Assembly (NCBI GenBank): GCA_015485575.1
Contig: WFTF01000047.1
Location: forward strand, 1-40,660
Origin: Patescibacteria group bacterium
GTDB taxonomy: Bacteria > Patescibacteriota > Minisyncoccia > Phycocordibacterales > UBA918
Direction: 5' to 3'
Length of the DNA: 40,660 nucleotides
The stretch's first letter is position 1; every line of letters starts with the position of its first letter. Below, piece by piece: positions 2,754 through 16,111 of the stretch. The notes under the pieces are model-generated. The model saw only the letters and a list, made by a program, of their open reading frames with translations. It did not search any database and was not told the DNA's origin. The position numbers were made by a program, and so were the translations under genes.

Positions 2754-3422
2754 ATGGTACGAAACAAAGAAACATATAAGCAGGTCTTGGAATTTCGCAA
2801 GCGGGGCTTCACGTATGCGGAGATTGCAAAAATATGCGGTATTTCAAAAAGCACGGTGAGTAACTACCTCTCCAAAAAAAAGTTTTCCAAGGAAATAGCA
2901 AAGGAAAACGCACAGAAAGCGGCACGGGAGAATAAGAAGCGCATGAGACTGTTAAATAAAGCGCGTAAAGCCGAGCGCAACGCCCGCTATCGCGAGGCGT
3001 TGCGCTCGGCTGAGACCGAGTTTAAGCACTACAAGCATTCCCCGCTGTTTGTTGCCGGTTTATCGCTGTATATGGCGGATGGTGACCTTGGAGACACTGC
3101 ACGCATCCGGATGAGCAGTACCAATACGCAGGTGCATCGTATTTTTATACATTTTCTGCGTGATTTTCTGGGTATTGAGAGTACTCAGGTCACATTTGTG
3201 GCAACATTGTATACGGGCATGGACGAAAGTAGAGAAATGAAATGGTGGTCTCGTGCAATAAAACTATCAGTGCGGCATTTTGGTAAAACCCAGTTTTTGA
3301 AAACAGATAAGATCAACTCTCACCCCGCTACACATCATGGCTCAGGCAGTACGTTTCTGAATAACACCACCCAAAAGAAAAAACTGTTGCGTTGGATTCA
3401 GTTGATGCAAGCAGAGTTATAA
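2754..3422 (+). CDS. HTH + LAGLIDADG-like protein, paralog of 13894..14565
   Basis: 222 aa with an N-terminal HTH-like segment (GFTYAEIAKICGISKSTVSNYLS) and a single LAGLIDADG-like segment (LFVAGLSLYMADGDLGD). Hand alignment with the 223-aa ORF at 13894 works along its full length. Confidence 0.7.
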   Translation: MVRNKETYKQVLEFRKRGFTYAEIAKICGISKSTVSNYLSKKKFSKEIAKENAQKAARENKKRMRLLNKARKAERNARYREALRSAETEFKHYKHSPLFVAGLSLYMADGDLGDTARIRMSSTNTQVHRIFIHFLRDFLGIESTQVTFVATLYTGMDESREMKWWSRAIKLSVRHFGKTQFLKTDKINSHPATHHGSGSTFLNNTTQKKKLLRWIQLMQAEL

Positions 3423-3499: not shown

Positions 3500-3570
3500 G
3501 CGGCCATGGTTAAGTGGTATAACGGGTCCTTGCCAAGGATCAGTCGGGAGTTCGATTCTCCCTGGCCGCA
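3500..3570 (+). tRNA. tRNA-Gly (anticodon GCC)
   Basis: Acceptor GCGGCCA/TGGCCGC, D stem GTTA/TAAC, anticodon loop TTGCCAA, T arm GGGAG-TTCGATT-CTCCC. No encoded CCA. Confidence 0.9.
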
Positions 3571-3575
3571 CCTAT

Positions 3576-3726: not shown

Positions 3727-3747
3727 TTCGATTCTCCCTGGCCGCAC
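3727..3747 (+). repeat. 21-nt direct duplicate of the 3' end of tRNA-Gly(GCC)
   Basis: TTCGATTCTCCCTGGCCGCAC occurs at 3551-3571 (in the tRNA) and again at 3727-3747. The second copy lacks the 5' half of the T stem, so it is not a functional tRNA. Confidence 0.85.
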
Positions 3748-3800
3748 GAGTACAAAATGAGCGCACGTCAGTGCGTCATTTTTGTTCATACAGGATTGGG

Positions 3801-3824: not shown

Positions 3825-3930
3825 AACAGATTTTGGTAAATGATATAGCATATATGCTATATAGTGTATCTTTTTGCATAGTTTTCTGGTAGTATAGCTT
3901 GGAATTCATATACATATGGAGGACACACAT

Positions 3931-4830
3931 ATGACAATGAAAAAAATCGTCCTCCCTGAGGGGGACAGTCAACGAGTTCTTTCCGCTGCACAGGGGATTT
4001 TGAATCAAGGTATTTGTCATCCGGTTTTGATCGGGGATGCTGCACATATTTGCGGTGAAATTGAAGCTCCTCTTGAGAGTTATACCGTGCTTGCGTCTGA
4101 CAGTACCGAGCTGGATCGGCTGCAAGCTGCAGCTGCAGCGAAAGGTAAAGAGCTTCGCGTTTCTGACGCATCTTTGGTACAGGGTGCTGCGTTGGTACGA
4201 GACGGGTATGCTGACGGCATTGTCGGTGGTGCTCAAACCGGAACGGATGAGGTCTTTTTGGCGTATATCAAGACTATCGGTGTGCATGAGGACGTTTCTC
4301 GTGTAACCAGCTGCTTCTTGATGGAAAAAGACAATCAGCGTTTTATTTTTGCCGATTGTGCACTCAATCCGGAATCCAACGCTTCGGAACTGGCAGAAAC
4401 GGCTTACCTGAGCGCTCAATTTGCAAAAACGGTGGGAATAGAAGAGCCTGTTGTGGCATTTCTGTCTTTTCAGACCGTTGGAAATGCGCCGCATGCGCTA
4501 ATGCAGCTTCCGCGTGATGCTGCAAAAATTGCACGTGAAACCTATGCACTGCGCGCAAACGGTCCCTTGCAGTTTGATGCGGCACTGTTGCCGGATGTTG
4601 CAAAGCGCAAGACCAAAGACTGTGACGTGGCTGGACATGCCAATGTCTTTATCTTTCCGGATCTTGAAAGTGGTAACATCGGCTACAAAATCGCCGAGCG
4701 TATGGGCGGGTTTACAGCAACAGGTCCCCTGTTTTTGGGCTTTAGAAAGCCCGCCTACGACCTGTCTCGAGGGTGTTCCGTAGAAGACATCATTTCGGTG
4801 GTGCGTATGGCGGTGCAGCATGCAGAGTAA
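3931..4830 (+). CDS. pta: Phosphate acetyl/butyryl-transferase family protein
   Basis: N-terminal IVLPEGDSQRVLSAAQ...HPVLIGD and C-terminal DLSRGCSVEDIISVV are typical of the PTA_PTB family. GGAGGA lies 7 nt upstream of the ATG at 3931 (the ORF opens at 3916). Confidence 0.8.
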   Translation: MTMKKIVLPEGDSQRVLSAAQGILNQGICHPVLIGDAAHICGEIEAPLESYTVLASDSTELDRLQAAAAAKGKELRVSDASLVQGAALVRDGYADGIVGGAQTGTDEVFLAYIKTIGVHEDVSRVTSCFLMEKDNQRFIFADCALNPESNASELAETAYLSAQFAKTVGIEEPVVAFLSFQTVGNAPHALMQLPRDAAKIARETYALRANGPLQFDAALLPDVAKRKTKDCDVAGHANVFIFPDLESGNIGYKIAERMGGFTATGPLFLGFRKPAYDLSRGCSVEDIISVVRMAVQHAE

Positions 4831-4849
4831 CCATCTTTACGGTGAGATA

Positions 4850-4877
4850 AAGGGCGTTTCTCATGAAACGCCCTTTC
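4850..4877 (+). terminator. Terminator after the pta-like gene
   Basis: AAGGGCGTTTC-TCAT-GAAACGCCCTTTC. Confidence 0.7.
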
Positions 4878-5056
4878 TAATGCATATATTTATTAGTGAG
4901 ATTCAGATAGTTACACATGAAACAAAAAGTACTATGCAGACCATAGCACCCATTTACTTACTATATTTACTATATGTTGAATATATCACTGTTTTTCTCC
5001 CATTCTTATGTCACTACAAGAGGTTTCATGTGTAACCAATGATAGAGGAATAACAA

Positions 5057-5072
5057 TGTTTCACGTGACACA
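5057..5072. promoter_or_regulatory. parS-like site (15/16)
   Basis: TGTTTCACGTGACACA compared with the ParB/Spo0J consensus TGTTNCACGTGAAACA. Confidence 0.6.
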
Positions 5073-5259
5073 ACTACTATTTCATATGAAATGAAGTATT
5101 TTAAACCGGAAACAAATATCAGAATCAAAAAATCACCATTTTTGCGTATAACGGCAATAAAACACACTAAAAGTTGTCGTGCACACAGTTCACTCATTTC
5201 AAATACGATGCAATGATACGGACTCCAACTAGCCACCTTTTTGCAAAACAGAATTAAAT

Positions 5260-5289
5260 CGTGGATAACCAGGTGGATAGGTGGATAAA
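5260..5289 (+). promoter_or_regulatory. Three tandem DnaA-box-like repeats
   Basis: CGTGGATAA, GGTGGATAG and GGTGGATAA match TGTGGATAA at 8/9, 7/9 and 8/9. All are in the same orientation and are followed by an AT-rich stretch. Confidence 0.45.
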
Positions 5290-5378
5290 GGACAGTACTT
5301 TACAATGAGTGATTTTAGTAAAATATCCCTATAAATCAGTATTTTTAAAGGAAAATCATCGATTTTGTACTTTAATAA

Positions 5379-5394
5379 TGTTTCACGTGAAACA
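5379..5394. promoter_or_regulatory. Perfect parS site
   Basis: TGTTTCACGTGAAACA is a 16/16 match to TGTTNCACGTGAAACA and is fully palindromic. Confidence 0.75.
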
Positions 5395-5432
5395 TTGCAA
5401 AAATAGTTCCACATGGAACAATATAAACATTC

Positions 5433-5843
5433 ATGGCAACAGGTAGTAAGAAAAATACCAAGAAAATAGGAGATTTGGGTGAAAAAATTGCTCAAAAATA
5501 CTTGCATGATAGTGGGTTTGTTATAGTTGGTACCAATTTCTGGAGGAAGTGGGGTGAAATTGACATTATTGCAAAAGATAAACAGGGAGTGTTGCGTTTT
5601 GTTGAAGTAAAATCCGTTTCATATGAAACTATCACAGACCTGGAATACGCAGTTACACATGAAACTTGGCAACCTGAGGAACAGGTACACGCACGTAAAC
5701 TTCGTCAGATAGAAAAAACCATTGCCTCATGGATCACGGAACAGAGTTACGATGGTTTATGGCAGATTGATGTACTTGCCGTGAAGATGGTTATCCCCGA
5801 AAAGTATGCATCGGTTTCGTTTATTGAAAATGTTGTGCAGTAG
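5433..5843 (+). CDS. yraN: YraN-family (UPF0102) endonuclease-like protein
   Basis: 136 aa with GDLGEKIAQKYL...GEIDIIAKD...LRFVEVKS, the typical YraN pattern. Confidence 0.8.
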   Translation: MATGSKKNTKKIGDLGEKIAQKYLHDSGFVIVGTNFWRKWGEIDIIAKDKQGVLRFVEVKSVSYETITDLEYAVTHETWQPEEQVHARKLRQIEKTIASWITEQSYDGLWQIDVLAVKMVIPEKYASVSFIENVVQ

Positions 5844-5844
5844 A

Positions 5845-5890
5845 GGTTCATTCTCAATAAAGGACACATGTCCTTTATTGAGAATGAACC
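5845..5890. terminator. 22-bp perfect hairpin between yraN and the convergent tRNA-Pro unit
   Basis: GGTTCATTCTCAATAAAGGACA-CA-TGTCCTTTATTGAGAATGAACC. No T-run. Confidence 0.5.
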
Positions 5891-13893: not shown

Positions 13894-14565
13894 ATGACAT
13901 ATCCGGAATTAAAACAGAAAGCAATTCGCTTACGGAAAGATGGCTATTCGTATAGTATGATTTCTGAAAGACTATGTGTATCCAAAAGCACGTTACACTA
14001 CTGGTTGTCAGAAATACCCTATACAGCAAATGATGAGGTACGCCAAAGAATCGGAGAGGCGCGTGCGCGCTCGGGAGAGGTAAAACATCAGCAAAAACTT
14101 GAAACGTTTCGCCAATCGGCAAAACAGGCGAAAAAGGATATAGGTACTTTGTCGCAACGTGATTTGTTTATGCTTGGGTTGGGGATTTATATTGGAGAAG
14201 GTGAGAAAGGTGAGGTGATTGGGGTGATTAACTCTGACCCGCGTATTATTGTACTTATGATGCGGTGGTTTATGGAGGTGTGTGAGTTGAAAAAAGATAA
14301 CTTTTCAATTGCCATTCATCTATACCCCGATAACAACCAAAAACAGTGTTTGCAGTTTTGGTCTGAGGTAACCGGATTGCCACAGGCACAGTTTGGTAAA
14401 ACTCAGATTGACCGCCGGCGAAACAAAAAACAAGGAAAGCGAGGGAAGTTACCATATGGAACGGCGCATTTGCGTGTAAAGAGCAACGGACAGAAGGAGT
14501 TTGGTGTACTGTTGGCACGCAGAATTCATGCGTGGATGAAACTTGTGTTAGCGCACAAGATTTGA
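13894..14565 (+). CDS. HTH + LAGLIDADG-like protein, paralog of 2754..3422
   Basis: 223 aa with HTH-like GYSYSMISERLCVSKSTLHYWLS and LAGLIDADG-like LFMLGLGIYIGEGEKGE. The gene ends 16 nt before tRNA-Gly(UCC). Confidence 0.7.
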   Translation: MTYPELKQKAIRLRKDGYSYSMISERLCVSKSTLHYWLSEIPYTANDEVRQRIGEARARSGEVKHQQKLETFRQSAKQAKKDIGTLSQRDLFMLGLGIYIGEGEKGEVIGVINSDPRIIVLMMRWFMEVCELKKDNFSIAIHLYPDNNQKQCLQFWSEVTGLPQAQFGKTQIDRRRNKKQGKRGKLPYGTAHLRVKSNGQKEFGVLLARRIHAWMKLVLAHKI

Positions 14566-14872: not shown

Positions 14873-16111
14873 TCAGGCCGCCGACTTCTGCGCGGTGTGG
14901 CATCGATAGAGTTTCATCGCCACGTTCCGAACCAGGCTGTACTCCAGATGCGGAATCAGCCACATTGCTGGAATCCACCGACGATCAGACCAGCCACGTT
15001 CCCGCAACCACGACTCGGTCCCTGCCGAGCAGTTACCGGCACGGTAGCTGTCCTCTCGGATGACCAGCGGGCAGAACCCGTGTTCGCCGTTGAGGAAGCC
15101 GACGAGGTCAGCGTGTTTCGCTACCAGTTCGTCTTGGCGTTTCCATGCGCGAAGCGCTTCACGAAGCGCTTCGCGTGGGCCACCCCAGTTGCTGTGGTAC
15201 GTCCGACCGTTGGTCGAGCGAACCAAGAACTGGAAATCGACGCCGATCTGATGGCCACGCCGACTCATCTGGGGGATGGCGATGCGGAACACCTCCGTTC
15301 CCAGCTTCACCAAGCGCGGCTCCTCCTCGCGGCGAGATTCGACTCCGTCACTCTCGTCGGCCACCTTGCACAGGTGGTAATCAACGAGCCATTCGCGCGC
15401 CTCTCGGTAGCTCCTGAAGTGGGAGTTCCCGGAGAGCGAGATCGCGGTGGCGATGACAGCGGCCTTGCCCGCCTGGTCGGTGATCATTAGGGCCTGAGCG
15501 ATGGACGCCCAGGAGGGCTTCTGCCCCTCGAAGGCACGCAGGATGGTCTCGGCGCGGTGTTTCACCTTCCAGAGTTTCCGCTCGAGCTTACCCGGCGATG
15601 GGTTACGCGCGGCGAAGTCCCACAGGTGCAGCGTGGTGCGACGAGCCCACATGCCGCGAGAAGACTGGGTCTTCTCGACTACCTTGCGGACGCCGTACAG
15701 ATCGGCAGCGGCTTTGAGCCAGCCGCAGAACCGCTGCACCTTTTTCACGACCTTCTCCGCACCTGCGCGACTGGCGTAGCGCGGGTAGCTGCCGGGCGCC
15801 ACGTTGGCGTTCACCATGTTCTCGATATTCCATGGGATGTTGGTGAACCCGGAGTCCTCGACTGCCCGGTGAACCAGATCGGAGAGGTGCGACCAGTCAA
15901 TGGTCACACCATCCCCCTGGAAATACTCCTTGTCAGTGATGGGGCACTGGAAGCGTCGAAAGGAGGAGCGTCGGACATAGCGCTCCTCGTAAACCGCCTC
16001 ATCGGCGATTTGTTTGAGGGTCATAGACCCGTCAAGGCCGTAGTCCGCGTCGGTGGCGGACATGATAAGGTGCTGGCGACGGGTGGTGTTGGTGTAAGCG
16101 TTCAGTGACAT
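14873..16111 (-). CDS. Hypothetical 412-aa protein of unrecognised family, with G/C-biased third codon positions
   Basis: It is the longest ORF in the G+C-rich segment. GAGGAGG lies about 5 nt upstream of the ATG. G/C-ending codons (CTG, GGC, CGC, ACC, AAC, ATC) are strongly preferred, unlike neighbouring genes. Confidence 0.75.
   Translation of the reverse strand: MSLNAYTNTTRRQHLIMSATDADYGLDGSMTLKQIADEAVYEERYVRRSSFRRFQCPITDKEYFQGDGVTIDWSHLSDLVHRAVEDSGFTNIPWNIENMVNANVAPGSYPRYASRAGAEKVVKKVQRFCGWLKAAADLYGVRKVVEKTQSSRGMWARRTTLHLWDFAARNPSPGKLERKLWKVKHRAETILRAFEGQKPSWASIAQALMITDQAGKAAVIATAISLSGNSHFRSYREAREWLVDYHLCKVADESDGVESRREEEPRLVKLGTEVFRIAIPQMSRRGHQIGVDFQFLVRSTNGRTYHSNWGGPREALREALRAWKRQDELVAKHADLVGFLNGEHGFCPLVIREDSYRAGNCSAGTESWLRERGWSDRRWIPAMWLIPHLEYSLVRNVAMKLYRCHTAQKSAA

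Follow-up and report, generated by a model that had tools for sequence, protein, structure and literature searches.

A candidate chromosomal centromere of parS-type sites interleaved with DnaA-box-like motifs in Kaiserbacteria-like Patescibacteria

Results

A cluster of parS-type palindromes in and between pta and yraN

The stretch of DNA analysed here, hereafter the window, comprises the 40,660 nucleotides of contig WFTF01000047.1 from a Patescibacteria group bacterium (NCBI GenBank assembly GCA_015485575.1) and contains, in and between the genes pta and yraN, a dense array of 16-bp palindromes resembling parS, the ParB/Spo0J site. The pta gene (3916-4830, + strand) encodes a phosphate acetyltransferase (Pfam PTA_PTB, E = 1.4e-80) and yraN (5433-5843, + strand) a UPF0102 protein (Pfam UPF0102, E = 3.4e-17) whose NCBIfam match to the YraN family is below cutoff; between them lies a gap (4831-5432) in which the longest open reading frame (ORF) measures at most 76 amino acids. 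The gene content of the window is that of chromosomal housekeeping, with the CCA-adding enzyme, NusA, trigger factor, ClpP, RNase Y, TIM, PGK and RecJ, and it also includes type IV pilus genes and ComEC.

We scored each palindrome by the number of its 16 positions that match the palindromic parS consensus TGTTNCACGTGAAACA. The best site, the anchor (5379-5394, TGTTTCACGTGAAACA), is a perfect canonical palindrome (16/16), followed by the sites at 5057-5072 (TGTTTCACGTGACACA, 15/16) and 4909-4924 (AGTTACACATGAAACA, 14/16). A score of 13/16 is reached at 5022-5037, at 5405-5420 (at 26 bp from the anchor and followed 13 bp later by the yraN start codon), at 4293-4308 and 4527-4542 inside pta, where the DNA encodes V-S-R-V-T and (I/V)-A-R-E-T, respectively, and at 5651-5666 in yraN, where it encodes V-T-H-E-T. 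The second yraN site (5615-5630, encoding V-S-Y-E-T) and a palindrome that forms the stem of the pta terminator hairpin (4855-4870) score 12/16. The weakest palindrome (5078-5093, TATTTCATATGAAATG, 11/16) is a doubtful member of the array, as it does not conform to the core pattern used below and has no clear orthologue among the sites of related lineages. One 14-mer, GTTACACATGAAAC, recurs three times, at 4910, at 5023 (as its reverse complement) and at 5652. A first-pass annotation of the window had listed ten sites at 4527-5666, and all ten coordinates and scores were reproduced by sequence inspection and mismatch search, the 12/16 and 11/16 sites being counted by hand; it had missed the one at 4293-4308. 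Its statement that the sites extend into coding sequence proved correct, two being embedded in each gene, those of pta in its 3' two-thirds.

This clustering far exceeds background. With up to three mismatches to TGTTNCACGTGAAACA the window yields 13 strand-matches, compared to 2.0 +/- 1.9 in 100 dinucleotide-preserving shuffles, none of which reached 13, and all matches except one fall within 4293-5666. Likewise, 10 of the 11 window matches to the core pattern GTTNCANNTGNAAC (at most one mismatch) lie in these 1.4 kb, compared to 2.06 expected across the entire 40.7 kb. Nor does such a density occur elsewhere in the loci that we scanned: outside the arrays, eight of the loci from this clade hold 6 core-pattern sites in approximately 135 kb, and an unrelated background of 157 pta loci (1.9 Mb) holds 0.013 sites per kb, with only one site at one mismatch or fewer. 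Chance is excluded as the origin of the site cluster. The first-pass annotation had described the density as far above that of usual chromosomal parS sites; it is indeed high and confined to 1.4 kb, but has a precedent in the 22 parS sites within 3 kb of Myxococcus xanthus (PMC3899335).

The array is conserved in position across nine lineages

Eight further lineages share the array: L085, L165, L166 and L170, reached through pta (55-64% identical to that of the window); L179, reached through searches with the CCA-adding enzyme and PNPase, the latter being approximately 80% identical to that of the window species; and L176, L177 and L178, which are more distant (PNPase identity of approximately 75%) and lie on contigs of 1.08 Mb, 848 kb and 487 kb. 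Judging from the protein names of PNPase and CCA-enzyme homologues, which, where a source is given, read Candidatus Kaiserbacteria, Candidatus Paceibacterota or Patescibacteria group, the window and its relatives probably belong to uncultured, ultra-small Patescibacteria close to Candidatus Kaiserbacteria. A pta search of GTDB genomes returned no close relative (best identity 44%), while near-identical contigs are present in ENA, Logan and NCBI (GCA_015488135.1); 100-bp differences between the window and L081/L172 are probably scaffold gaps rather than real indels. On the ENA contig ctg321093_13x_c (ERZ25072999; L176/L173) of 1,083,307 bp the array sits near 533.3-533.9 kb, at approximately 49% of the length, a position that is not interpretable if, as its name suggests, this is a metaMDBG-style circular contig with an arbitrary start.

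Each of the nine lineages carries 7-15 core-pattern sites within 0.6-3.5 kb, five to seven of them intergenic, and many occupy shared positions. Relative to the yraN start these are a pair at about -54/-28 and sites at +182, +218 and about +350 inside yraN; further shared positions are a pair 34 bp apart at the 5' end of a membrane-protein gene described below, two fixed codon positions in pta, and the pta terminator. The first site of the -54/-28 pair, the anchor, is perfect in the window, L085, L176 and L178, and carries one mismatch in L165 and L170 and two in L166, L177 and L179, while its partner (5405-5420 in the window) was found in every aligned lineage. The pta-embedded sites occupy identical codon columns in five lineages, with GCA CGT GAA AC of the 4527-4542 site unchanged in all five and the sites orthologous to 4293-4308 scoring 14-15/16 in the relatives. 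The yraN site at 5615-5630 likewise falls in a codon column shared by five lineages (offset +176 to +188). In the relatives, a pair with a comparable spacing (35-37) lies immediately to the left of the membrane-protein gene, comparable to the window site at 5022-5037. In L176-L178 the locus is without pta, and there the yraN-centred part of the array is kept, along with one or two sites after yraN.

The membrane-protein gene accounts for the gap in the window. In L165 (11058-11735), L166 (6440-7114), L170 (5945-6610) and L179 (2387-3049, - strand), the interval between pta and a set of DnaA boxes contains a gene for a protein of 220-225 amino acids, which itself carries two sites; the copies from L165, L166 and L170 share 60-70% identity and are hydrophobic, and Pfam and NCBIfam assign the protein to no family. 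The gene is a frameshifted pseudogene in L085 (7137-7621) and absent from the window, indicating that the non-coding gap arose because this species lost a gene kept by its relatives. The same interval harbours an inserted def gene in L166 and DoxX in L170, and the array persists through these gains as well as through the loss. Thus, the 600-bp non-coding gap around which the first-pass annotation had placed the sites does exist (4831-5432), but it is not the essence of the array, since the relatives mostly fill this space with a gene.

Embedded sites are under selection at the DNA level

Nearly all embedded sites are read in the frame GTT-xCx-C(G/A)T-GAA-ACx, encoding V-S/A/T-R/H/Y-E-T, the exception being the first site of the membrane-protein gene, which uses the sole other stop-free frame. 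To separate conservation of DNA from that of protein, we determined, for positions at which two lineages have the identical amino acid, the share of pairs that also have the identical codon. This share is 0.76 inside the sites and 0.43 outside for pta, 0.67 and 0.45 for yraN, and 0.88 and 0.46 for the membrane-protein gene; the lineages are related and the counts therefore not independent, and the outside values show that synonymous positions are otherwise near saturation. Arginine within the sites is encoded by CGT in 16 of 16 instances (hand count on the codon blocks), compared to 32% of the arginine codons in the window genes. Selection at the embedded sites is on DNA rather than on protein, and the locus provides a clean natural example of binding sites maintained by selection inside coding sequence through a single compatible reading frame.

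The shared frame and the similar peptides could in principle point to the opposite, namely that the palindromes lack a function as DNA and are a product of chance or of a recurring V-S-R-E-T peptide that happens to be encoded by parS-like sequence. Part of the pta motif (V-S...S) does resemble a general PTA motif. However, the intergenic sites encode nothing, the shuffles never reach the observed counts, synonymous positions within the sites are frozen, and only a single weak parS-like site, at another offset, turned up in the pta genes of 157 other taxa. We therefore give this explanation almost no credence.

We consider it equally implausible that an integrated plasmid or prophage contributed the array as its partition site. 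Plasmids typically have dense centromere arrays, and the duplicated 3' end of a tRNA-Gly, 1.7 kb from the array, suggests that integration may have occurred here in the past; on the other hand, the housekeeping context and the gene order are conserved in nine lineages, no mobile-element genes flank the array, and the array has no DNA match among 72,556 plasmid records. On the basis of the chromosomal gene order and the lack of a match among these records, we rejected a plasmid origin.

Base preferences favour parS over an operator of another protein

The positions left free by the core pattern offer a view of the sites that the search itself did not impose. Among the 86 sites collected in eight lineages, T occupies position 1 in 52% and position 5 in 61%, and position 8 is taken by C in 67% and by T in 32%; the central four bases read ACGT in 36 sites, ACAT or ATGT in 27 and ATAT in 10. 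The bases at the free positions thus track the parS consensus, which would fit recognition by a ParB protein that tolerates variation at the centre.

Two kinds of evidence count against recognition by ParB. First, most sites are degenerate (12-14/16), several being centred on CACATG or CATATG. Second, no gene for ParB came to light: consistent with the statement of the first-pass annotation that parA and parB are missing from the window, a Pfam scan of its 40 ORFs detected no ParA, ParB or DnaA domain, a motif scan of the loci recovered first gave no ParB signature, and Pfam found no ParB or DnaA domain among the called genes of the relatives, whose fetched loci together cover approximately 30 kb on the left of the array and 35 kb on its right. 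These observations raise the alternative that the palindromes are operators of another dimeric DNA-binding protein, either YraN, on whose gene the array is centred in all lineages, or the helix-turn-helix (HTH) protein encoded at 2754-3422, whose gene is found in synteny with the array in each of the nine lineages and a paralogue of which is encoded at 13894-14565. Against either candidate, the best site of each lineage is an exact or near-exact universal parS, the free positions drift toward its consensus, and operators are not normally written into three coding sequences. As for the HTH protein, searches against Pfam, NCBIfam and PDB sequences placed it in no specific family, with generic HTH matches only (parB_part, at E = 0.027, is far below cutoff and covers the HTH portion alone) and no informative PDB match, and a single-sequence AlphaFold model was unusable (pLDDT 52). 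We therefore consider such a binder improbable, and favour ParB as the protein that would recognize the array.

DnaA-box-like motifs lie within the array

The gap also contains three head-to-tail 9-mers (5260-5288) that resemble DnaA boxes with one or two mismatches each; on the - strand they read TTATCCACG, CTATCCACC and TTATCCACC, and on the + strand CGTGGATAA, GGTGGATAG and GGTGGATAA. The first-pass annotation had omitted this cluster, which would tie the array to replication initiation. All nine lineages carry 3-5 boxes at the equivalent place, approximately 90 bp to the left of the best parS site; where the membrane-protein gene is present, its stop codon is overlapped by the boxes. In an eight-way alignment the last box, GTGGATAA, and the (A)GGAC that follows are invariant, GTGGATAA being found in L179 as well, and in L176-L178 an extra box that resembles TTATCCACG, in inverted orientation, lies 55-65 bp further left. 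The last box is abutted by a conserved block, GGACAGTAC (5289-5297, + strand), whose G-A-C is invariant, and is fused to the half-site ATAAAGGACA (5284-5294), which reappears in a palindrome beyond yraN. To the right of the boxes follow some 80-100 bp of AT-rich DNA and then the anchor; this stretch (5308-5378) is the AT-richest of the gap, with the lowest-GC 40-mers (17.5% GC), and may be either an unwinding region or the yraN promoter. Within it, approximately 35 bp to the right of the boxes, the block AATAyGGCTATAAAT (5320-5336) is conserved in eight aligned lineages. This block resembles a -10 element, without a -35 element at 16-18 nt.

Across the window, 9-mers within one mismatch of TTATCCACA number 21, compared to 10.1 +/- 3.3 in shuffles, none of 100 reaching 21, and a perfect DnaA box lies at 754-762, just downstream of the CCA-enzyme gene.

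The array wraps these conserved boxes and the adjoining AT-rich stretch, and we therefore read the putative centromere as lying at, or interleaved with, a replication origin. Strand asymmetry is in keeping with this reading. In nearly every locus that spans it, cumulative G-C shows a V-shaped minimum at the boundary between the divergent genes for the CCA-adding enzyme and the HTH protein, which is 2.6 kb from the boxes in the window and 0.6-10 kb in the relatives. The majority gene orientation flips at the same boundary (Fisher p = 1.7e-4 within the 1.08-Mb genome L176/L173; p = 0.013-0.03 in three other comparisons), and strand-independent GC3 skew shifts by 0.06-0.17 in the direction expected of an origin in all lineages tested, a weak signal that is no proof of one.

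Other observations weigh against an origin at this place. Skew mostly follows the coding strand and is thereby confounded as evidence, its strand-independent component falls to approximately zero on the left arm without reversing, and the minimum sits 2.6-10 kb off the boxes. The AT-rich DNA lies on the side opposite to that dictated by the polarity of the B. subtilis basal unwinding system (PMC8287927), and inspection by eye revealed no convincing run of DnaA-trios, as defined in the same study, on either side of the boxes. Moreover, the boxes and the parS pair could act as operators of a yraN promoter.

These points are those expected if the array were a centromere but not an origin, with the DnaA boxes regulating yraN or titrating DnaA and the true oriC elsewhere, probably beside dnaA. 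In keeping with this alternative, Pfam found no dnaA or dnaN among the called genes of the window and the fetched loci, which extend approximately 30 kb leftward and 35 kb rightward; the boxes, the -10-like block and the parS pair all fall within the 170 bp preceding the yraN start; in B. subtilis, six clusters of DnaA boxes lie outside oriC, some of which control genes next to them (PMC3245932); and the parS cluster of M. xanthus is approximately 35 kb from oriC (PMC3899335). Conversely, the alternative does not predict the V-shaped skew and the orientation flip so close to the boxes, nor boxes that are as strongly conserved as the parS sites, down to the inverted box of the distant lineages, and a sigma-70 promoter scan found promoter-like sites to be rarer than in shuffles, with none before yraN. 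We regard a centromere without an origin as the less probable arrangement, and judge the chances that the array lies at or inside the replication origin to be about even. A more specific proposal, which we advance only tentatively, is that of a compact, self-contained origin-plus-centromere module of approximately 0.6-2.5 kb, far from dnaA, in which ParB sites, many of them in frame within pta, yraN and the membrane-protein gene, bracket the DnaA boxes and an unwinding region on either side, a third palindrome (ATAAAGGACA-N2-3-TGTCCTTTAT), the target of a further factor, closes the module, and initiation is coupled physically, over a few hundred base pairs, to capture of the new origins.

Neighbouring features

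The palindrome beyond yraN belongs to a perfect 22-nt inverted repeat (5845-5890, -34.4 kcal/mol) that contains ATAAAGGACA-N2-TGTCCTTTAT. A palindrome of the form (T)ATAAAGGACA-N2-3-TGTCCTTTAT lies just past yraN in nine of nine lineages. Since its sequence is conserved, and not its pairing alone, a role beyond that of a terminator is possible.

The pta terminator hairpin (4849-4876, + strand) has a predicted RNA fold of -19.6 kcal/mol (z = -5.1) and is flanked by runs of A and T. A similar arrangement of terminator and palindrome is seen in L085 (6934-6960, -18.5 kcal/mol), and L165, L166 and L170 have a parS-like site shortly past the pta stop codon; the palindrome may therefore combine an RNA hairpin and a ParB site in one sequence. 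At curated thresholds Rfam detected no RNA family in the gap. A relaxed Rfam search gave a match to the Bacteroides small RNA BTnc231 (4847-4992, - strand; 31 bits compared to a cutoff of 80.4, E = 1.8e-4), which spans the terminator together with AT-rich DNA and which we judged to be due to chance or driven by the hairpin.

The HTH protein encoded at 2754-3422 and its paralogue at 13894-14565 (both + strand) measure 222-223 amino acids and have an HTH at the N-terminus, followed by a long helix and a C-terminal region in which, by eye only, a LAGLIDADG-like motif can be discerned (FVAGLSLYMADGD and LGLGIYIGEGE). The last 21 nt of tRNA-Gly(GCC) (TTCGATTCTCCCTGGCCGCAC, 3551-3571) are repeated exactly 177 bp downstream (3728-3748), in what looks like an integration scar at a tRNA 3' end. 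Finally, an ORF of 412 amino acids (14873-16111, - strand) without a Pfam match lies in a stretch of 56-63% GC, compared to a window mean of approximately 47%, and may have been acquired horizontally.

Discussion

We propose, with a confidence of roughly 75%, that the approximately 1.4 kb array is a ParB loading array, that is, the chromosomal centromere, of Kaiserbacteria-like Patescibacteria. The proposal is drawn from sequence comparison. The first-pass annotation had suggested a centromere or nucleation array from the window by itself, and this suggestion gains support from the recurrence of the array in eight further lineages, the conserved positions of its sites, the anchor, canonical or nearly so in eight of the nine lineages, the drift of the free positions toward the consensus and the conservation of synonymous positions.

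By analogy with ParB/Spo0J, ParB dimers would recognize each 16-bp palindrome and close as CTP-bound clamps that slide to flanking DNA. The combination of one perfect, one near-perfect and approximately eight weaker sites would raise the rate of ParB loading, leading to a single partition complex on which ParA and/or SMC could act. If the centromere is located at or interleaved with the origin, newly replicated origins would be captured at once, and oriC would not be adjacent to dnaA in these bacteria.

Almost nothing is known of the replication and segregation of the approximately 1-Mb chromosomes of Patescibacteria (Candidate Phyla Radiation), and in full-text literature searches we came across no paper that deals with parS, ParB or oriC in these bacteria. 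In metagenome-assembled genomes, the array and its boxes, being conserved and easy to recognize, can serve to mark the putative centromere and the probable origin, and they are an obvious choice for in vitro experiments with recombinant ParB and DnaA. Should the locus also prove to be an origin, it would offer a candidate cassette of approximately 1 kb for replicating, stably inherited vectors in organisms without genetic tools.

Chromosomal parS sites normally number one to four per genome and are origin-proximal (Livny et al., 2007, as summarized in PMC3899335). The closest counterpart of the present array is that of M. xanthus, with 22-24 sites in approximately 3 kb, 4 kb upstream of parA (PMC3899335). 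Both are dense chromosomal clusters of degenerate universal parS sites, several per kb, each read as one large ParB nucleation region; that of M. xanthus lies near the origin, as the present one may. The M. xanthus cluster adjoins parAB and is located on a 9-Mb chromosome, whereas here the genome is approximately 1 Mb, no parAB was detected in the DNA checked on either side (approximately 30 kb on the left, 35 kb on the right), the array wraps DnaA boxes, and about half of the sites are in frame within three coding sequences.

In P. aeruginosa, the ParB complex formed on parS1-4 overlaps oriC (PMC4368675, PMC10419367); the sites at which it nucleates are so near the origin that the complex covers it, as may be the case here, one strong site being sufficient and the others auxiliary. 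Its four sites are spread over several kb by dnaA-linked genes, in contrast to the 10-15 sites found here at 100-1100 bp from the boxes, with dnaA not nearby. The DnaA-box clusters that B. subtilis carries outside oriC (PMC3245932) are likewise small intergenic groups; they lie near the origin and have no flanking parS arrays.

The parS consensus that we used is that of B. subtilis Spo0J/ParB (Lin and Grossman, 1998, as cited in PMC7022226). The anchor is identical to it, and both systems tolerate intragenic sites. In B. subtilis, one parS site lies inside spo0J itself, and the sites are dispersed across the fifth of the chromosome closest to the origin, whereas here they are packed into 1.4 kb.

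Plasmid centromeres such as F sopC, R1 parC and pSM19035 parS also unite many sites within at most 1 kb into one partition site, and they do so with tandem, plasmid-specific iterons. The window has no such tandem array; its sites are irregularly spaced copies of chromosomal parS in a chromosomal context, with no plasmid match. A further class of related palindromes are the Noc-binding sites (ATTTCCCGGGAAAT), which Jalal and colleagues reportedly described in 2020 as 16-bp parS-related sequences bound by a ParB paralogue, with A at position 2 and C at position 7. When scored against the full consensus, most half-sites in the window have the parS bases at these positions (G and A, respectively), and only the weak site at 5078 has outer bases like those of Noc-binding sites; the cross-lineage search pattern fixed positions 2 and 7, and its counts add nothing to this distinction.

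Given the precedents of M. xanthus and P. aeruginosa, the kind of element that we describe is already known. What is new is the lineage in which it occurs, and what is unusual is that DnaA boxes are interleaved with it within approximately 100 bp, that neither parAB nor dnaA was detected nearby, and that so many of the sites are intragenic.

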